The translations under genes and the position numbers were made by a program. From assembly GCA_964520655.1 (NCBI GenBank), contig CAZFNI010000003.1, positions 6,220 through 70,219 on the forward strand: a DNA stretch of 64,000 nt. The letters run 5' to 3'. Source of the stretch: an uncultured Planctomycetales bacterium. Its GTDB lineage: Bacteria; Omnitrophota; Gorgyraeia; Zapsychrales; Fredricksoniimonadaceae. The notes below the pieces were generated by a model. That model ran no database searches and was not told where the DNA came from. It saw nothing but the letters and a program-made list of their open reading frames with translations. Below are positions 4,200 to 37,111 of the stretch, in pieces; position 1 is the stretch's first letter; each line of letters begins with the position of its first letter.

Positions 4200-5287
4200 A
4201 AAAGATCAAACGCATCGGTATCTTGACAAGCGGCGGGGATTGTCCGGGTTTGAATGCTGTCATCCGGGCGATCGTCAGAAAAGCGACCCAGGAGTTGGGC
4301 TGCGATATCATTGGTTTTGAGGACGGGTTCGAAGGTCTGATCTTTAATCGGCATCGCAAGCTGGATTTAGAAAGGGTTTCCGGCATATTGACCCTTGGTG
4401 GTACGATCCTGGGAACCTCTAACCGCTCAGACCCGTATCGGTACCCTGTTAAAGAGGGGCTTAAACCCGTTTATAAAGATGTATCTAAAATGGTGATGAA
4501 GAACATCAAAGACCATAAAGTAGATTGTTTGGTTTGTATCGGCGGGGATGGGACCTTGACCATTGCCAACCGCCTGGTTAGGGAAGGAGTGCCGATCGTG
4601 GGCGTTCCTAAAACCATTGACAATGATGTCATGGGTACCGACATTACGTTCGGTTTTGATACGGCGGTTGGTATCGCGACGGAGGGGGTCGACAGGTTGC
4701 ATACGACAGCACAATCCCATCACCGGGTGATGGTCATTGAGGTCATGGGACGCAGAGCGGGATGGATCGCGCTTCATGCCGGCTTGGCTGGCGGCGGAGA
4801 TATCATTTTGATCCCCGAGATCCCCTACGATACGGTCTTGATGGCGGACTTGATTAAGGAACGAAGAAAAAGAGGCAAAAGATTCACGATCATCGTTGCG
4901 GCGGAAGGGGCTAGATCAAAATCCGGGCAGGAGATCGTTAAGGAGAAGGTCAATGATCCCGCTGATCCTGTGCGGCTAGGCGGCGTCAGTTTTGTTTTGG
5001 GCAAAGAGATCGAGCAGCGCACGGGTATCGAAACCCGTAACGTGGTTTTAGGGCATCTGCAGCGCGGTGGCACACCGTCGGCGTTTGACAGGATATTGGG
5101 AACACAACTTGGATGCAAGGCTGTTGAGCTGATCGCCAATAATGACATCGGCTTCATGGCCGCGGTCCAGCAGAACTATATGGTTAAAGTCCCTCTAACA
5201 GCAGTCGCTCAAGGCCAAAGAACAGTCCCCGTCGATCATCCGCTGATCAAGACAAGCCGATCGATCGGGATAAGTTTTGGTTCATGA
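4197..5287 (+). CDS. pfkA: 6-phosphofructokinase
   Basis: N-terminus 'KRIGILTSGGDCPGLNAVIRA', 'GGDGT' and 'MGR' motifs of the PFK family. The ORF-track start at 4124 is upstream of the likely ATG at 4197 (MKKIKRIG), which overlaps the dbpA stop. Confidence 0.8.
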
Positions 5288-30090: not shown

Positions 30091-30714
30091 ATGAAGTTCT
30101 TATCACATTCTACAAAGGTTGTTCTATTGATGGCGGCCATGGTTTTATCCACAGCAGGCTTCTTTAGGGTTTATGCGGAAGAAACAGAAGAAGGTTTTAA
30201 GAAATTCACGGTCTATCAGGACAAGCCGTCGAGAAATCATTATTACATTTCCGGGTATATGCCAGACGGGCAATGCGTGGCCATGGATGATGCCTGGCAA
30301 AAGGATTGCCAGGAAGGCCGCAGCTGTATCAAGGCCTATTTCGGTCGAGAATGCGCGACGATGCATCAGGCCTGGGCCGGGGTTTACTGGCTTCATCCGG
30401 CGAATAACTGGGGCGATAGTAAGAGCGGTTACAGCCTAAAGGGAGCTAAGCGTTTGGTGTTCTGGGCTAAGGGTGACAAGGGCGGGGAGACGATCACCTT
30501 TAAGATGGGTGGCGTCGGGATGGGGCATACATTCCCGGATACAGATTCTGCTGGTACGGATCCCATCAAGCTTACCAAGGACTGGCAGGAGTATTCCATT
30601 GATCTGACGGGTAAAAACTTAGAGAGGATCGCCGGCGGTTTTGTCTGGGTGGCCAATGTCAAGGACAACAGCTCGAACGCCACGTTCTATCTGGACAATA
30701 TCTACTACGAATAA
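30091..30714 (+). CDS. Secreted hypothetical protein (beta-sandwich / CBM-like C-terminus)
   Basis: Signal peptide; 4 Cys; C-terminal 'ATFYLDNIYYE'; followed by a hairpin terminator. Confidence 0.4.
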   Translation: MKFLSHSTKVVLLMAAMVLSTAGFFRVYAEETEEGFKKFTVYQDKPSRNHYYISGYMPDGQCVAMDDAWQKDCQEGRSCIKAYFGRECATMHQAWAGVYWLHPANNWGDSKSGYSLKGAKRLVFWAKGDKGGETITFKMGGVGMGHTFPDTDSAGTDPIKLTKDWQEYSIDLTGKNLERIAGGFVWVANVKDNSSNATFYLDNIYYE

Positions 30715-30744: not shown

Positions 30745-30790
30745 ACTCCCGCTTGTAATTATTTTACCGGCGGGAGTTTTATTTTTTATT
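30745..30790 (+). terminator. Probable intrinsic terminator after the secreted hypothetical gene
   Basis: ACTCCCGC ... GCGGGAGT stem (17-nt loop) followed by a TTTTATTTTTTATTT run. Confidence 0.45.
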
Positions 30791-30876
30791 TGACAAATAA
30801 CAAAATATTGGTAGATTTGTTTGAGTAAATAAGTTAACTTTTGACGTATTTAAGGCGTTGTGAAAGGAAGGGTGTT

Positions 30877-31203
30877 ATGCGGATCATATTGATGTGGGTT
30901 GCGGTGATGGTGGCAATGCCTTGTGCCTGGGCGCAGGAAGCGGAGTCGGTCACGATCGTTATTAAAGATCACCGGTTTATGCCTGCCGAGGTGGTTGTGC
31001 CAGCCAATCGTAAATTGAAATTGATCATTGATAATCAGGATCCCACACCGGAAGAGTTTGAGAGTTATCCGCTTAATAGAGAGAAGGTTATCAGCGGGAG
31101 AACACAAGGGCTTGTTTATATAGGCCCGTTGGCAAAAGGTGTTTATGAGTTTATAGGAGAATTCCATAAGGAAACAGCCAGAGGTCAGATCGTTGCCAAA
31201 TAA
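30877..31203 (+). CDS. Periplasmic cupredoxin-like domain protein associated with the FTR1 permease
   Basis: Signal peptide MRIILMWVAVMVAMPCAWAQ; ~90-aa beta-rich domain immediately upstream of, and co-oriented with, the FTR1 gene (the ORF-track start at 30841 is upstream). Confidence 0.5.
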   Translation: MRIILMWVAVMVAMPCAWAQEAESVTIVIKDHRFMPAEVVVPANRKLKLIIDNQDPTPEEFESYPLNREKVISGRTQGLVYIGPLAKGVYEFIGEFHKETARGQIVAK

Positions 31204-31212
31204 AGGAGTGTT

Positions 31213-32772
31213 ATGTTCTCAATTGCTTTAGTGTTATTCAGGGAGGTCTTTGAGATCGCATTGATCGTGACCATCCTTTTAGCGGCGACAAAAAGCCTCA
31301 AGCACCGCATCCCGTGGATATTCATTGGGATCGTCTGGGGGATATTGGGTTCATGTTTGATCGCCTTCTTTGCTGATACGATCTCCCAGGCGGCACAAGG
31401 GTTAGGTCAGGAAATATTCAATGCGATCATCCTTTTGACCGCGGCCATATTGATCGGATGGACGACCATCTGGATGACGCGGCATGGCAAGACATTATCC
31501 CAGGAATTCAAGCAGGTTGGCGCGGAGGTTGTCCAGGGCCGAAGGCCCATGTATACCCTGGCTTTGGTGATCGCCTTGGCGACGCTGCGTGAGGGAGCAG
31601 AGATCGTGATGTTCACGTACAGTGCTTTTCTGACGGGAACAAAGGTCCTGGATCTTGTTTTCGGCGGCATCCTGGGGCTTTTCGCGGGGATCAGTATTGG
31701 GATCATTCTTTATTACAGCCTGATGAAGATACCGACAAAGAAGATCTTTGCTGTCACCAGCTGGCTTTTGATCTTTTTGGTCGCTGGCATGGCGGCGCAG
31801 GCGTTTAGCTTTTTGACCGCGGCTGGTGTTGTTCCTGAGATCGTCCCTACCCTCTGGGATACGTCCAGGTTCGTTTCAAGCAGTAGTTTTATCGGTAAAG
31901 TGCTGCATGTGCTGCTGGGCTATACGGATAGGCCATCGGGCATGCAGGTGTTGGTATATTGTTTAACTATTGGAGGATTATCTATGTTCCTTAAGTTGTA
32001 TGGTGAGCTTCCCCAGGCGGCTCTCAAGAAGACATTGACAGCAGTTGTTGTTGGATCGGCATTGCTGGTCATGATGCCAAATAGCGCCCACGCGACCAAG
32101 AAGGTGTATTCGCCTCTTGTTGAAAAAGGGGAGCTTGAGATAGAGGCGAGAGGGCAATATGATATTGATGAACGTGCCGGCAAGGACAATAACCAGAAAC
32201 ATAAGTATGCCGTCGGTTATGGGGTAACCGAACGCTGGTTCACGGAAGTCTATGGGGAATGGGAGCGTGTTAAGAATGACAGTGATGAGGATCTCAATTT
32301 CAAATTCACCGCATTGTCATGGGAAAATCGTTTGCAGTTGACCGATCAGGGGCAATTCCCTGTCGATGTCGGGTTGTATCTGGAATACGAGGCGTCATTT
32401 GAGAATAAGCATCCGGATAATCTGGAGGCCAAATTATTGCTGGAGAAGTCCCTTCCGCATTTTACCCACACGTTAAATCTTTCCCTGGAGCAGAATGTCG
32501 GGCGGCATCCGACCGAGGACTTAGTCGGTGGTCTTGCCTGGTCGAGCAAATACCGTTTAAGGGAGTGGTTCATGCCTGGTGTGGAATGGCATAGCAATTT
32601 CGGCGAGATCGGACAGACGGTCGCGTTTAATGATCAACGTCATCAATACGGCCCGGCCTTTTATGGAAAGATCGGCCAGGTGAAGTATGATGTTGGGTAT
32701 TTGTTGGGCGCCTCCGACGCTGCCCCCAAAGGCGAGATCAAATGGATCGTTGAATACGAATTTAAGTTCTAG
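31213..32772 (+). CDS. FTR1-family high-affinity iron permease fused in frame to a signal-peptide-bearing beta-barrel-like C-terminal domain
   Basis: RExxE motifs 'REVFE' (TM1) and 'REGAE' (TM4) with 7 TM helices in res 1-257; then 'MFLKLYGELPQAALKKTLTAVVVGSALLVMMPNSAHA' (signal-peptide-like, AHA cleavage site) and a ~230-aa alternating-pattern domain ending '...EYEFKF'. Confidence 0.65.
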   Translation: MFSIALVLFREVFEIALIVTILLAATKSLKHRIPWIFIGIVWGILGSCLIAFFADTISQAAQGLGQEIFNAIILLTAAILIGWTTIWMTRHGKTLSQEFKQVGAEVVQGRRPMYTLALVIALATLREGAEIVMFTYSAFLTGTKVLDLVFGGILGLFAGISIGIILYYSLMKIPTKKIFAVTSWLLIFLVAGMAAQAFSFLTAAGVVPEIVPTLWDTSRFVSSSSFIGKVLHVLLGYTDRPSGMQVLVYCLTIGGLSMFLKLYGELPQAALKKTLTAVVVGSALLVMMPNSAHATKKVYSPLVEKGELEIEARGQYDIDERAGKDNNQKHKYAVGYGVTERWFTEVYGEWERVKNDSDEDLNFKFTALSWENRLQLTDQGQFPVDVGLYLEYEASFENKHPDNLEAKLLLEKSLPHFTHTLNLSLEQNVGRHPTEDLVGGLAWSSKYRLREWFMPGVEWHSNFGEIGQTVAFNDQRHQYGPAFYGKIGQVKYDVGYLLGASDAAPKGEIKWIVEYEFKF

Positions 32773-32784
32773 GATGTGTTTGTG

Positions 32785-32818
32785 CCCCTGCCGGAGATAT
32801 TGCCGGCAGGGGTTTTTA
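32785..32818 (+). terminator. Rho-independent terminator after the FTR1-fusion gene
   Basis: 10-bp GC-rich stem CCCCTGCCGG/CCGGCAGGGG, 8-nt loop, then TTTTTAT. Confidence 0.7.
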
Positions 32819-32850
32819 TGTCTTGACTTAATTTATTTTTTGTTTTATAA

Positions 32851-32867
32851 ATAGAAATCATTTCTAT
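32851..32867 (+). promoter_or_regulatory. 17-bp perfect palindrome ATAGAAATCATTTCTAT (Zur/Fur-box-like operator) overlapping -10 and start of zur
   Basis: Perfect dyad centred on C; sits between a TTGACT-N16-TATAAA promoter (32824-32851) and the zur ATG at 32870. Confidence 0.5.
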
Positions 32868-32869
32868 AT

Positions 32870-33283
32870 ATGAAAATGCCGTTATTAGAACAATTAAAAG
32901 CTAAGCATCTTAAGCTGACGCCGAAACGCAAAGCGATCCTGGACTGTTTTTCCGGCGAGAATAAATGTTTGTCTCCTGAGCAGGTGTGGGAGAAGTTAAG
33001 GAAAGATTTCAAACATTTAGGGCTCCCCAGCATTTACCGCAATCTGGAAACATTTGAGAGCTGCGGGATCTTGGTCAAGATCCAGAAAGATGACAGGCGT
33101 TTGTATTACGCGTTGTGCCGAGGTCACGTGAGCGGGCATCACCATCATCATATCGTGTGTGTCCGCTGCGGAAGGGTCGACGAGGTTGACGGTTGCGGCC
33201 TGATGGAAACCGTCAAGGTCAGCGGTTATAAAGTATTGAAGCATTTTGTCCAATTGGAGGGAGTGTGTCCCCAATGCCGTTAA
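32870..33283 (+). CDS. zur: Fur-family metalloregulator, probable zinc uptake regulator
   Basis: Fur-family winged helix (LTPKRKAILDCF...SPEQVWEKL), His-rich 'HHHHHIVCVRCG' and CxxC pairs; immediately upstream of znuACB. Confidence 0.7.
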   Translation: MKMPLLEQLKAKHLKLTPKRKAILDCFSGENKCLSPEQVWEKLRKDFKHLGLPSIYRNLETFESCGILVKIQKDDRRLYYALCRGHVSGHHHHHIVCVRCGRVDEVDGCGLMETVKVSGYKVLKHFVQLEGVCPQCR

Positions 33284-34170
33284 CCTTCAAACAAAATACA
33301 GCTATTGTCCTGATCATGCTGTTGTGTATGCTGCCAGGCGGGGCCTGTCATGCCAAAAGCATTCACGCGGTAGCCACATTTAGCGTGGTGGGAGATATCG
33401 TCCGGCAGGTGGCGGGTGAGGCGGTGGACTTGACTGTTTTGGTAGGGGCCAATGCCGATGCCCATGAGTATGAGCCGACACCGCAGGATGCGGTCATTTT
33501 AAGTCATGCGGATGTCATCTTTGAGAATGGGTTTAAGTTCGAGGGGTGGCTGGATAAATTGTATGCGTCCAGTAACTCCAACGCGCGACGCGTTGTAGTT
33601 TCAGAGGGTGCGCGCGCAAGGACTATGCCGGATAATCCATCCGAGATAGACCCACATGCCTGGCAGAATATACAGAACGGGATCATCTATGCGCGTAATA
33701 TCGCCGCGGCGCTAAAAGAACTTGATCCCTCCCATACGGCGATCTATGAGGCCAATGTCAAAAACTTTGTAGACCGATTAACGCAATTGGATCAATGGGG
33801 CGAGCAGCAGCTCAAAGGGGTCAAGAACAGGACGATCGTCACCAATCATGAAGCGCTGGGCTATTTTGCCGATCGGTATGGCTTTACAATTGCCGGGGCT
33901 GTTATCCCGTCAACAACGACAGAAGCATCGGATCCATCAGCCAGGCAGATGGCGCGTCTGATCGAGGTGATACAGAAAGAACATGTAAGGGCCATATTCG
34001 CGGAAAATGCGTCCAACAGTCAAATGGCGAAAGTGTTGGCTGATCAGGCCGGTGTCAGGGTTGTGCCGGGGCTGTATACGGACGCGTTGGGTACCTCGGA
34101 AAGTAAAGGTTCAACGTATGAGGGGATGATGCGCGCGAACATTCAAACATTCACTGAAAATCTGGAATGA
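33265..34170 (+). CDS. znuA: Metal (Zn/Mn) ABC transporter substrate-binding protein, TroA/ZnuA family
   Basis: Signal peptide; cluster-9 SBP pattern (HAWQN, 'DPHAW', 'NHEALGYFADRYG'); operon context. Confidence 0.7.
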   Translation: MSPMPLTFKQNTAIVLIMLLCMLPGGACHAKSIHAVATFSVVGDIVRQVAGEAVDLTVLVGANADAHEYEPTPQDAVILSHADVIFENGFKFEGWLDKLYASSNSNARRVVVSEGARARTMPDNPSEIDPHAWQNIQNGIIYARNIAAALKELDPSHTAIYEANVKNFVDRLTQLDQWGEQQLKGVKNRTIVTNHEALGYFADRYGFTIAGAVIPSTTTEASDPSARQMARLIEVIQKEHVRAIFAENASNSQMAKVLADQAGVRVVPGLYTDALGTSESKGSTYEGMMRANIQTFTENLE

Positions 34171-34173
34171 TCC

Positions 34174-34923
34174 ATGAAGTTCTCTTATTGTCAGCATCGA
34201 CATAGCCATCCAAACCCCAAAGCGCCGGCGCTTGAGATCAAGGATCTTGCGGTGGCCTATCCATATGCGCAGGATATGGCGATCACAGGGTTGAGCACTC
34301 ATGTTCATGTCGGGGATTCCATTGCTTTGGTTGGTTCCAATGGTGCTGGGAAGTCGACGCTGTTTAAGGCTATCAGCGGTTTGCTGCCCATCCATTCCGG
34401 CAGCATACGCATTTTCGGTCATCCGCTGGGGGCCTGCCATCAACGTGTGGTCTATTTGCCCCAGCACAGCGATGTTGACTGGTCTTTCCCTGTCAGCGTG
34501 TTGGACTTGGTGAGCATGGGCAGATATGTGTACCGCGGCTGGTTTTCTCCTTTACGTAAAAGAGACTGGCATGAGGCTCATGAGGCTCTTAAGCAAATGC
34601 GCATGGATGATCTTTGCGGCCGGCATATCAGCAGTCTTTCCGGTGGACAAAAGCAGCGGGTACTCATCGCGCGGGCATTGGCCCAGCAGGCCGATCTGCT
34701 GCTTTTAGATGAACCTCTCAACGCGGTGGATGCCCAGACGCGTGAGATCGTTGAGGATCTCTTAAAGAAGATCAAGGCGCAAGGCAAGACGGTGCTGGTG
34801 GCCACCCATTATTATGACAGGGAAGAAGGGCGCTATGACGGGGCCATTTATCTTAAAGACGGGACGCAAGTAAATTCAGACATGAAAAAAGACAACCGGC
34901 ACCAGGGATGCGACCACCCATGA
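34174..34923 (+). CDS. znuC: Metal ABC transporter ATP-binding protein
   Basis: Walker A 'GSNGAGKST', signature 'LSGGQKQRVLIARAL', Walker B 'LLLLDEP'. Confidence 0.75.
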   Translation: MKFSYCQHRHSHPNPKAPALEIKDLAVAYPYAQDMAITGLSTHVHVGDSIALVGSNGAGKSTLFKAISGLLPIHSGSIRIFGHPLGACHQRVVYLPQHSDVDWSFPVSVLDLVSMGRYVYRGWFSPLRKRDWHEAHEALKQMRMDDLCGRHISSLSGGQKQRVLIARALAQQADLLLLDEPLNAVDAQTREIVEDLLKKIKAQGKTVLVATHYYDREEGRYDGAIYLKDGTQVNSDMKKDNRHQGCDHP

Positions 34924-35738
34924 TGCATTATTTGACCGATCCATTTCAGTACGCATTTATCCAGCGCGCGGCGCTAGCCGGTATACTCATCGGTGTTCTG
35001 TGCGCGGTCTGGGGGACCTATATTGTCTTAAGGCGCATGGCACTCATCGGGCATGCGTTAAGCCACAGCGCGCTGCCGGGCTTGGTCATCGCGTTCTTGC
35101 TCAAAGGCAGTTTGCCGTTAGGCGCGTTTTTCTCGATCCTGGCGGCGGCGATGGGTATCGGGTTAATGTCGAAAAATGATACGATCAAAGAAGACACCTC
35201 GGGTGGGATCGTCCCCAATGTGATGTTCGCGTTAGGGATCGTAATGATCAGTGCGACTAAATCATTCCGGGATCTTTTTTCCATGTTGTTCGGCAATATT
35301 CTGGCGGTGACCAATGGGGATCTGGTCTTTATTACGGTCGTATTCATTGCTGGTATAGCCACGGCATTGCTGTTCTATAAAGAATTGAAACTGTTTTGCG
35401 TCGACCCGCATTATGCCAAGACCATCGGCATCCCGGTTGAGCGGCTGCGTTTTATAGTGCTGGTCTTTTTATCGTTAACGGTTGTCGTTGGCATCCAGGC
35501 CGTCGGAACGGTGCTGACCAACGCGCTGCTTGTCATTCCGGTCGCGGCCGCCCGGCTTGTGACAGATCGTCTGAACATCATGATGGGGCTGGCCTGTGCC
35601 TTTGCGGTCATTTCCACGTTAGGCGGAGTTTATGCGTCGTATTATTTCGGATTTTCATCCGGGGCCTCGATCGTGCTGGTGTGCGCGGTCGTGTTCACCG
35701 CGGCGTGGGTGTATAAATATTTCAAGCAGAGACCATGA
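34908..35738 (+). CDS. znuB: Metal ABC transporter permease
   Basis: 8 TM helices, ABC-3 family pattern; overlaps znuC. Confidence 0.7.
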   Translation: MRPPMMHYLTDPFQYAFIQRAALAGILIGVLCAVWGTYIVLRRMALIGHALSHSALPGLVIAFLLKGSLPLGAFFSILAAAMGIGLMSKNDTIKEDTSGGIVPNVMFALGIVMISATKSFRDLFSMLFGNILAVTNGDLVFITVVFIAGIATALLFYKELKLFCVDPHYAKTIGIPVERLRFIVLVFLSLTVVVGIQAVGTVLTNALLVIPVAAARLVTDRLNIMMGLACAFAVISTLGGVYASYYFGFSSGASIVLVCAVVFTAAWVYKYFKQRP

Positions 35739-37111
35739 CCCCTGTACAGTATAAAAGAGCGCTGTTCATATTCCGACGGGACTTAAGGCTCCAGGACAAT
35801 ACCGGTCTGATCGCCGCTTTGGAAAGATCTAAGCGCGTGATGCCGTGTTTTATCGTTGATCCGCGTCAGGTCGAGGATCAGCCTTACCGGGGGCGCCCAA
35901 GCCTGGCGTTCATGATCTCCTCGTTGAATGATCTTAAGGGACAGCTGAAAGAACGGGGCGGGCGATTATTCGTCTTTCATGGTAAGCCTCAGGATGTGGT
36001 CGAGTCGCTGATCCAGCAAGAAGGTATTGACGCTGTTTTTTTCAATGCCGATTATACACCCTTTAGTCGCAAGCGGGACAATGCGATCACTAACGCGTGC
36101 GACGCGCATAAGGTCCCCTGTCATGTGTCCCATGATGCGCTGCTTAATCCTCCCGACGCGGTGAGAAAAAACGATGGTGGTTTATATACGGTCTATACGC
36201 CGTATGCGCGTAAAGCCATGACTATCCCTGTTGCGTCACCGCGCTTATGTCCACGAGGGAAGTTTGAGGCATCTCCAAGCAGTTTGGAGAACACGAAGGC
36301 TTATGATGCGCTGCTGTCCTTGCCTAAAGAGTATCCCCAATATCCGGGGGGTAGAAGCGCCGCTTTATCGCTGTTAGCGGCCATCAAGCGGTTAAAGGAT
36401 TATGAGCAAAAGCGTGATTTCCCGTTCTTGCGTCAGACAACCGTTTTGTCCGCTCATCATAAATTCGGGACCTGCTCCGTCCGAGAAACCTATCACCACA
36501 TTGTCCGGGTTTTCGGCCCGTCGCATACACTGGTGAAAGAATTGTATTGGCGGGATTTCTTTACCCAGATCGGTTATCATTATCCGCATGTGCTGGGAAA
36601 AAGTTTCTATCCCCGTTATGATGCGCTTGCCTGGGACGATAATGAAGCGTTCTTTCAGGCTTGGGCGAACGGCCAGACGGGTTTCCCAATTGTCGATGCC
36701 GGCATGCGGGAGTTAAACGCGACCGGATTCATGCATAACCGCGTACGCATGATAGCCGCCTCATTCTTGATCAAAGACCTGCACATTGATTGGCGGCGGG
36801 GCGAGCAATATTTCGCGCGGGCATTGGTGGATTATGATCCGCTGGTCAATAACGGCAACTGGCAATGGGCGGCGTCGACGGGCTGTGATGCGGCGCCGTA
36901 TTTTCGTATCTTTAACCCCTGGCTGCAGCAGAAACGTTTCGACCCGCACGCTGAGTATATCAAGCAATGGATCCCGTCGTTAAGGGATGTTGATGCGCAA
37001 GCGATCCATGATATTCCAAAGAAGGGGCATGTTTTCAAGGATTATCCCGCCCCGATCGTCTGGCACGCGCATGAAAAAACCAAAGCATTAGCCGCATACG
37101 GGAAGGTGTGA
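35735..37111 (+). CDS. Deoxyribodipyrimidine photolyase / cryptochrome family (FAD-binding)
   Basis: N-terminal photolyase domain 'ALFIFRRDLRLQDNTGL'; C-terminal FAD-binding 'WREFF', 'GNWQWAASTGCDAAPYFRIFNP'. Confidence 0.8.
   Translation: MTPVQYKRALFIFRRDLRLQDNTGLIAALERSKRVMPCFIVDPRQVEDQPYRGRPSLAFMISSLNDLKGQLKERGGRLFVFHGKPQDVVESLIQQEGIDAVFFNADYTPFSRKRDNAITNACDAHKVPCHVSHDALLNPPDAVRKNDGGLYTVYTPYARKAMTIPVASPRLCPRGKFEASPSSLENTKAYDALLSLPKEYPQYPGGRSAALSLLAAIKRLKDYEQKRDFPFLRQTTVLSAHHKFGTCSVRETYHHIVRVFGPSHTLVKELYWRDFFTQIGYHYPHVLGKSFYPRYDALAWDDNEAFFQAWANGQTGFPIVDAGMRELNATGFMHNRVRMIAASFLIKDLHIDWRRGEQYFARALVDYDPLVNNGNWQWAASTGCDAAPYFRIFNPWLQQKRFDPHAEYIKQWIPSLRDVDAQAIHDIPKKGHVFKDYPAPIVWHAHEKTKALAAYGKV

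Follow-up and report, generated by a model that had tools for sequence, protein, structure and literature searches.

A conserved in-frame fusion of an FTR1 permease to a predicted outer-membrane β-barrel through a putative internal signal peptide in an uncultured Omnitrophota bacterium

We analyzed a 64,000-nucleotide (nt) stretch of contig CAZFNI010000003.1 (NCBI GenBank assembly GCA_964520655.1, positions 6,220 to 70,219 of the forward strand; hereafter the window), which belongs to an uncultured Planctomycetales bacterium placed by GTDB in the Omnitrophota. Near its center lies a gene that couples a metal permease to an unrelated C-terminal domain. In the list of open reading frames (ORFs) of the window, this gene is one uninterrupted ORF of 519 amino acids (aa) without an internal stop. 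It comprises an FTR1-type permease with seven predicted transmembrane (TM) helices, a predicted internal Sec-type signal peptide and a predicted outer-membrane β-barrel. A promoter-like site and a strong intrinsic terminator bracket only two genes, that of a cupredoxin-like protein and the fusion itself (Table 1). Comparison with relatives establishes the ORF as a genuine, conserved fusion.

Table 1. Features of the FTR1–barrel locus (positions refer to the window; SD, Shine–Dalgarno)
Feature	Position	Strand	Basis or remark
Sigma-70-like promoter, TTGACA-16-TAGATT with TG extension, upstream of cupredoxin gene	30790..30817	+	Consensus match only
Secreted FtrB/EfeO-type cupredoxin-like protein, 108 aa from ATG 30877, first gene of two-gene operon	30877..31203	+	Pfam Cupredoxin_1, PDB 8vuk
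FTR1 permease / predicted internal signal peptide / predicted outer-membrane barrel ORF	31213..32772	+	Own SD AAGGAG at 31203-31208
FTR1 (FtrC/EfeU-type) permease part, aa 1-265, seven predicted TM helices	31213..32007	+	Pfam, AlphaFold2 helices
RExxE motif REVFE (aa 10-14)	31240-31254	+	FTR1 part
RExxE motif REGAE (aa 126-130)	31588-31602	+	FTR1 part
SD-like GGAGG from Gly254-Gly255 codons (GGA GGA) inside TM7	31972..31976	+	Sequence, pairing energy
In-frame ATG (Met258), candidate internal start, 7 nt after GGAGG	31984..31986	+	Sequence
Predicted internal Sec-type signal peptide = TM8 (aa 272-294): n-region KK, 15-aa h-region, c-region PNSAHA	32026..32094	+	113-fusion alignment
Predicted signal peptidase I cut (A294/T295)	Between 32094 and 32095	+	AxA pattern
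Predicted mature 225-aa 12-stranded outer-membrane β-barrel, 26.1 kDa, pI 5.2, acidic lumen face, terminal Phe	32095..32769	+	AlphaFold2, Foldseek; stop codon 32770-32772
Intrinsic terminator closing operon: 11-bp stem, 9 GC pairs, then T-run	32784..32823	+	
Perfect 7-1-7 palindrome TAGAAATCATTTCTA (Fur-family box type), candidate operator	32852..32866	.	4 nt before Fur-like gene

The N-terminal half is a member of a well-defined family. Residues 1–260 match Pfam FTR1 (PF03239) with 126.2 bits, against a gathering cut-off of 25.3 (E 2e-36). With the full-length protein as query, a homologue search found at least 113 non-redundant fusions of full length (501–535 aa), at 43–79% identity and 100% coverage, some of them labelled Omnitrophota, Krumholzibacteria or Alphaproteobacteria; in these 113 homologues the RExxE residues R10, E11, E14, R126 and E130 are invariant. 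The AlphaFold2 model contains seven long helices before residue 266, the last of which (TM7) spans residues 243–265. Lysine and arginine residues number 3, 5, 3 and 2 in loops 1, 3, 5 and 7, versus 0, 1 and 3 in loops 2, 4 and 6. Because these counts fit the positive-inside rule, the permease is predicted to be N-out/C-in with loop 7 in the cytoplasm, an arrangement that agrees with the description of the FTR1 family as seven-TM proteins (PMC9174327). A sequence search found no PDB sequence for the permease part of the window protein.

Between TM7 and the C-terminal domain, the window protein reads KKTLTAVVVGSALLVMMPNSAHA, followed by TKKVYSP at the mature end. Across the 113 fusions this stretch is poorly conserved in sequence and strict in pattern: two to three Lys/Arg residues precede an h-region with a median length of 15 aa, residue −6 of the cut site is Pro, Ser or Thr, and Ala occupies −3 in 101/113 and −1 in 112/113. 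By its sequence, an h-region of 15 aa has the length of a signal peptide rather than that of a TM helix. Since the basic residues, the short h-region and the −6/−3/−1 pattern have all been kept, we read the junction as a predicted substrate of signal peptidase I and not as a generic transmembrane helix. The ORF accordingly combines a polytopic N-terminal part, predicted to end in the cytoplasm, with a following n-h-c signal that carries small residues at −3 and −1. With loop 7 cytoplasmic, the signal segment would enter the membrane from the cytoplasmic side, and its AHA site would be exposed to the periplasm. In the AlphaFold2 whole-chain model, residues 268–286 form a helix and the predicted local distance difference test score (pLDDT) falls below 50 for residues 284–294. 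In standalone homologues of the C-terminal domain, an ordinary signal peptide stands at the N-terminus, and its end coincides exactly with the start of the mature TKKVYSP sequence. Only about 12 residues separate the cut site from the first barrel strand in the model, too short a distance for an uncleaved barrel to reach the outer membrane.

The C-terminal domain was modeled by AlphaFold2, using the 113-homologue alignment, as a closed 12-stranded barrel with a pLDDT of 96.3 and a predicted template modelling score of 0.90. A Foldseek search against the PDB returned only outer-membrane barrels, with FapF at the top (E 1e-8, TM-score 0.75–0.81), followed by NanC, Tsx, intimin/invasin, OmpG and a COG4313 channel (4rl8). 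Each strand is amphipathic, hydrophobic on one face and polar on the other. On the polar faces, about 13 Glu/Asp residues are near-invariant (E307, E309, E311, E345, E349, E351, E371, D385, E393, E405, E458, E514 and E516), as are K412, K510 and N422. The C-terminal residue is Phe in 101/113, and the window protein ends in …EYEFKF. On the strength of the model we assign the domain confidently to the outer-membrane barrels, its location being a prediction; the barrel fold, the amphipathic strands, the acidic polar faces, the terminal Phe and the signal peptides of standalone relatives are together the hallmarks of an outer-membrane channel, here with a lumen that would attract cations.

The barrel family lies outside current domain models. 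We found no Pfam or NCBIfam match for the C-terminal 262 aa of the window protein and no PDB sequence with the family profile. Few family members match OMP_b-brl or Phenol_MetA_deg (PF13557), and weakly; for PF13557 these are only 4/113 members (best E 1e-5), the window domain not among them. The likeness to PF13557, COG4313 and FapF is, judging from the models, one of fold only. While the window barrel shares the fold of the 12-stranded FapF/COG4313 channels, the roughly 12 residues before strand 1 leave no room for the N-terminal coiled coil or plug of FapF, and its polar face is dominated by conserved glutamates.

An earlier sequence-only reading of the window had described this ORF as a permease running without a stop codon into a Sec-type signal with an AHA site and an outer-membrane-protein-like domain ending in EYEFKF. 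That anatomy is borne out, as is the absence of a stop between the two parts, and the barrel prediction it had proposed for residues 295–519 gave the 12-stranded model described above. Two details needed correction: the two RExxE motifs and seven helices are there, but the permease is not complete at residue 257, which falls inside TM7, and the mature domain measures 225 aa (295–519), not 230.

Both the ORF and its fused state recur well beyond this contig. Assemblies made independently from the sequencing runs SRR16481186 and DRR783842 both contain the gene, without a mismatch in its 1,560 nt; one of their contigs departs from the window at seven positions upstream. A scan of one genome per species yielded 548 related stretches, and we classified the best 80 loci by alignment. 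An uninterrupted fused ORF was present in 62 of these 80, whose sources are Omnitrophota, Planctomycetia, Alpha-, Beta-, Gamma- and Zetaproteobacteria, Verrucomicrobiia and Pseudobdellovibrionaceae. Among the zetaproteobacterial loci is that of the pure culture Mariprofundus sp. EBB-1. In 16 other loci the two parts are separate genes, divided by an in-frame stop that follows the tail of TM7 and precedes the signal peptide; Stellaceae, Gallionellaceae, Sulfuricaulis, Methylophilaceae and Guyparkeria are among their sources. A rough neighbor-joining tree infers the fused state at the root and needs at least six changes between the fused and split states. Such repeated switching would be expected if both forms gave the same mature proteins.

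The split loci show how small the step between the two forms is. At the junctions of loci L064, L068, L085, L075 and L082 (near position 1400 in L068 and at about positions 4800–4900 in the other four), the stop codon of the FTR1 gene stands in the same frame as the barrel gene, so that changing one base would be enough to fuse or separate the two. In L064 the FTR1 stop is directly followed by the barrel start (TAA ATG), and in the relative L003 the two genes overlap by 4 nt. A close relative with 73% identity, L002 (GCA_041643255.1; positions 1–120 of a 1,322-nt contig), has the same in-frame junction; further upstream, a 1-nt frameshift in its FTR1 part (…SWL* then MILLVAG…) leaves the gene called as a 334-aa fragment, and this frameshift is either a sequencing error or the mark of a pseudogene.

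The barrel also has a life of its own. Its profile collects 2,815 representatives at 50% identity; of the best 150, about 30 are fusions, complete or truncated at the N-terminus, and the others stand alone, with a length of approximately 250 aa. One standalone homologue (L001, 1627–2376), with 71% identity to the window domain, has no adjoining FTR1 gene and is flanked by genes for a GAF-ANTAR regulator and for an ammonium transporter and P-II protein, so the family is not always tied to FTR1. A 262-aa C-terminal query in a word-indexed search had at first suggested that the fusion was unique to the window: it listed only standalone proteins of 235–290 aa and one 334-aa fragment, and returned none of the more than 100 fused homologues, with up to 79% identity, that the full-length query found. 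This reflects a limit of the word index and not biology, and domain-only queries can thus mislead on architecture.

The gene context suggests a link of the fusion to iron. The protein encoded directly upstream matches Pfam Cupredoxin_1 (E 3e-27) and the "EfeO-type cupredoxin-like domain" of PDB entry 8vuk (E 9e-10), and a homologue of it lies directly upstream on the same strand in all 76 of the 76 loci with enough flanking sequence. Genes for regulators of the Fur or DtxR family adjoin the module in several loci. Given the invariant RExxE motifs, the constant FtrB-like cupredoxin, these regulators and the acidic barrel face, the substrate is probably iron. The module is best described as an iron uptake system of the FtrB/FtrC kind, without FtrA and FtrD and with an outer-membrane channel of its own. 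As to the cupredoxin start, the ORF list opens this frame at TTG 30841 (120 aa), and identical contigs are called from ATG 30877 (108 aa), which is preceded by an SD-like GGAAGGG and begins a normal signal peptide (MRIILMWVAVMVAMPCAWA).

A further element of the junction lies at the nucleotide level. As the sequence-only reading had noted, a GGAGG stands 7 nt before an in-frame ATG, and we confirmed both at positions 31972–31976 and 31984. The AlphaFold2 model places the encoded Met258 within TM7, whose cytoplasmic end (K261) is three residues further on. The pairing energy of this GGAGG is −9.3 kcal/mol, versus −8.2 kcal/mol at the gene's own start. Across the window, in-frame internal ATGs with pairing as strong as −9.3 kcal/mol number 6 per 17,476 codons, and the chance expectation for such a pair of SD and ATG is 0.18 per 519-codon gene or about 0.01 per 28-codon junction. 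In one sequence alone the pair would be only suggestive; it gains significance only through conservation of synonymous sites in relatives. Family-wide, position 258 is not conserved (Met in 37/113, Val in 32, Leu in 12, Ala in 10, Thr in 7 and Ile in 7), and at the TM7 site both SD and start are missing from whole fused lineages, Mariprofundus and many Alpha- and Gammaproteobacteria among them.

The closest relatives present a different picture. We compared the DNA of 12 genes of the window clade. They share 42–92% aa identity, and their median third-position identity at conserved four-fold sites, 0.30, indicates saturation. The first codon of the TM7 Gly-Gly pair is GGA in 10/12 of these genes versus 7/36 for the other Gly-Gly pairs of the same genes (Fisher p = 1.4e-4), and in 14/24 versus 18/248 over all fused loci (p = 5e-9), both tests being without phylogenetic correction. 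The codon 7 nt downstream is ATG in eight clade genes, GTG in three and TTG in one, and is start-capable in 11/12, the exception being locus L007, which also has no GGAGG. Where residue 258 is Val, it is encoded by GTG in 3/3 cases, versus 30% elsewhere, and the Ile before Gly-Gly is encoded by ATA, which extends the motif to AGGAGG, in 5/9 versus 18% elsewhere. Two loci depart from the pattern in other ways: L089 has no GGAGG (GGG GGT) but has the ATG, and L003, whose barrel gene has its own start and SD, still carries GGA GGG in TM7. SD-like pairing at −8 kcal/mol or stronger was found at 16% of junctions, versus 3% of control windows.

Because the GGAGG and the start codon have been kept at saturated synonymous sites, these counts argue for nucleotide-level selection on the motif in the window clade. 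The synonymous-codon tests speak in part against the idea that the SD-like signal is a by-product of the conserved TM7 Gly-Gly and Met. Translation from Met258 would give a 262-aa precursor with a 37-aa signal peptide, consisting of MFLKLYGELPQAALKK, then the h-region, then AHA; by its sequence this would be a usable, if long, signal peptide that yields the same mature barrel. From these patterns we put some internal initiation in the window clade at slightly worse than even odds, an SD-like pause site being an alternative explanation of the GGAGG. Lineages without the motif still have both the fusion and the AxA site, and we therefore treat internal initiation as an addition to the polyprotein route and not as its replacement.

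We propose, with a probability of roughly 0.7, that the ORF encodes a polyprotein whose cleavage yields a permease for the inner membrane and a channel for the outer membrane. In this model, the first ~265 residues would fold as the FTR1 permease with seven TM helices, its N-terminus in the periplasm and its C-terminus in the cytoplasm. A short basic cytoplasmic loop (…ALKK) would lead into the 15-residue hydrophobic stretch, which would cross the membrane from inside to outside as an eighth helix and end in the A-H-A/T site. Sec would translocate the following 225 residues into the periplasm and signal peptidase I would cut after Ala294, leaving a 31.8-kDa eight-helix permease, with the signal as its TM8, in the inner membrane. 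The released 26.1-kDa barrel precursor would then be inserted by the β-barrel assembly machinery (BAM) as a 12-stranded, glutamate-lined outer-membrane channel. Iron would pass the outer membrane through the barrel, the cupredoxin would oxidize or hand over Fe2+ in the periplasm, and the FTR1 permease would import it. In the window clade, the GGAGG and start codon in TM7 may also allow separate translation of the barrel precursor, with the same mature barrel as the product. Cleavage of a polyprotein, which the sequence-only reading had not raised, is the best explanation and fits every family member.

Several points weigh against it. While the ORF and its conservation, the folds, the conserved motifs and the synteny are shown by the data, we infer cleavage, outer-membrane location, metal substrate, topology and internal initiation, the topology from the positive-inside rule together with knowledge of the family. 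Natural cases in which an internal signal peptide is cut behind a polytopic bacterial membrane protein are rare. The conserved SD and start codon hint that the polyprotein route alone may undersupply the barrel, at least in the window clade. The substrate, finally, could be another metal, as the adjacent regulator is assigned only to the Fur family and the neighboring ABC system is ZnuA/TroA-like.

The codon evidence bears most directly on a nested in-frame gene, in which the barrel precursor would be made mainly or only from the internal start, the permease would have no stop of its own and the read-through chain would be a tolerated by-product that is cleaved or degraded. The GGA preference in the clade and over all fused loci, the ATG, GTG or TTG at the fixed distance downstream with the accompanying GTG and ATA choices, the simultaneous absence of GGAGG and start codon in L007, the excess of SD-like pairing at junctions and the workable long signal peptide (MFLK…KK, h-region and AHA) are all what such an arrangement would produce. 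Yet Met258 is found in only 37 of the 113 fusions, with Ala, Thr or Ile at the site in at least 24, and lineages without an SD or start keep both the fusion and the AxA site, so that the polyprotein route must work in Mariprofundus-type lineages. Moreover, L003 keeps GGA GGG though its barrel gene has its own start and SD, the codon counts are phylogenetically uncorrected, and an SD-like pause element would also explain the GGAGG; we consider a nested gene unlikely. The programmed dual product suggested by the sequence-only reading gains support from the synonymous sites of the clade, while the Met258 counts and the many fused lineages without an SD speak against it. The comparison of orthologous loci that it had called for showed a conserved fusion, in many cases without a junction SD, whereas the window clade keeps the GGAGG and the start.

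The covalent link could instead be permanent, with the eighth TM helix as a lasting anchor and the β-domain capturing metal at the periplasmic face of the inner membrane. The link is conserved in many lineages and AlphaFold2 models the whole chain as one polypeptide, but the domain has every hallmark of an outer-membrane barrel, and its closest standalone homologues have N-terminal signal peptides that end at the same residue. An anchor, furthermore, needs neither the near-invariant Ala at −3 and −1 nor a 15-aa h-region, and the repeated switching between fused and split forms speaks against an obligatory covalent link; we regard an uncleaved fusion as quite improbable. To an artefact or decay, in which an assembly or sequencing error or a recent stop loss made a non-functional chimera, we give next to no weight. 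The frameshift in the FTR1 part of the close relative L002 and the single nucleotide change that suffices to join or separate the genes of split relatives might be taken in its favor. The identical gene in two independent assemblies, one with different flanking DNA, nevertheless refutes the assembly error that had been considered earlier, and purifying selection is clear in both halves of the more than 100 diverged full-length fusions. A recent loss of the stop codon, the other earlier suggestion, is refuted by the at least 113 protein clusters and 62 genomes with the fused form and by the fused root state on the rough tree.

Beyond this locus, we think it fairly likely that cleaved polyproteins of this kind represent a widespread, undescribed class that spans two membranes, threaded by Sec and cut by signal peptidase I, together with a new family of glutamate-lined 12-stranded channels dedicated to FTR1 systems (~2,800 representatives at 50% identity) and, in one clade, a second route to the channel through an internal ribosome-binding site.

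Among known iron uptake systems, FtrABCD of Bordetella, Brucella and Burkholderia likewise places a secreted EfeO/FtrB-type cupredoxin beside an FTR1 permease with two RExxE motifs, and FtrB of Brucella binds Cu2+ and speeds up Fe2+ oxidation (PMC11966278). The window operon differs from FtrABCD in having no P19-type FtrA and no ferredoxin FtrD, neither of which was found in the operon or among the called genes of related loci, and in having an outer-membrane barrel fused to the permease. EfeU of EfeUOB is likewise a seven-TM OFeT/FTR1 permease and is the best NCBIfam match of the window protein; the match to the EfeU equivalog NF041756 scores 130.7 bits, below the cut-off of 255, and the protein is therefore not an EfeU orthologue. 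Compared with EfeUOB, the window system lacks the M75 domain of EfeO and the EfeB peroxidase and has an extra TM8 and the barrel. The FTR1 systems EfeUOB, FtrABCD, FetMP, P19-cFtr1 and FepABC are listed in PMC9174327, and none of these has an outer-membrane component.

Precedents for the gene organization come from elsewhere, and our literature search returned nothing relevant on FTR1–outer-membrane fusions, on FTR1 in Mariprofundus or on internal signal peptides feeding outer-membrane proteins. The closest mechanistic one known to us is the cytochrome b-c1 polyprotein FbcH of Bradyrhizobium, studied by Thöny-Meyer and co-workers in about 1989–1991, in which a single ORF encodes a polytopic inner-membrane protein followed by an internal signal peptide and which is reportedly cleaved into two mature proteins. 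Both FbcH products reside in or on the inner membrane as parts of one complex, whereas here the second product is a predicted outer-membrane barrel and cleavage is a prediction. To our knowledge, no bacterial ORF described so far yields one product for the inner membrane and one for the outer membrane. In-frame nested genes with internal starts are exemplified by infB, which gives IF2 alpha and beta, and by cheA, with its long and short forms. As in infB and cheA, an SD and an in-frame start within the window ORF could give a shorter C-terminal product; here, however, this product would be a different protein in its secretory precursor form, and the signal for the putative initiation is limited to one clade.

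The flanks of the operon hold several further genes. Upstream, positions 30091–30714 encode a 207-aa protein with an N-terminal signal-like segment, no Pfam domain and a weak NCBIfam match to "choice-of-anchor J" (E 7e-4). In the closest relatives (L087–L090) this gene lies directly upstream of the cupredoxin gene; in the window, a hairpin with a T-run at about 30746–30785, seen by eye and absent from the terminator scan, and then the promoter-like site separate the two. Downstream, a Fur-like gene occupies 32870–33283, with a Pfam Fur match for 32870–33280. The palindrome in front of it has no second perfect copy in the window, where further matches have three mismatches, at chance level, and by its sequence and position it is probably an autoregulatory operator; a search of the window found no comparable Fur-type palindrome in front of the cupredoxin/FTR1 operon. 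The Fur-like gene is followed at 33265–35738 by genes for a ZnuA/TroA-like binding protein, an ABC ATPase and an ABC-3 permease, and then by a photolyase gene at 35735–37111. The ZnuA, ABC-3 and Fur neighborhood also occurs beside the FTR1–barrel module in L003 and L089.

Each half of the fusion is of a known kind, the permease by its family and the barrel by its fold; their connection through an internal, predicted cleavable signal peptide is apparently undescribed. Proteins of this kind are currently labelled only "FTR1 family protein", and the barrel has neither a Pfam nor an NCBIfam model. The FTR1 systems surveyed in PMC9174327 have no outer-membrane partner; with the barrel family they would gain one, and the passage of the metal across the outer membrane would be explained. 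If the cleaved-polyprotein reading is true, synthesis of the two halves of an envelope-spanning iron-uptake route would be obligatorily coupled. Were cleavage confirmed, the fusion would offer a natural system for the handling by Sec of a large periplasmic domain after seven TM helices, and a model for the recognition of an internal signal by signal peptidase and for the handover of a barrel precursor to BAM. The fusion occurs in iron oxidizers (Mariprofundus; in Gallionellaceae the two parts are split) and in Omnitrophota, for whose ecology iron handling is central.

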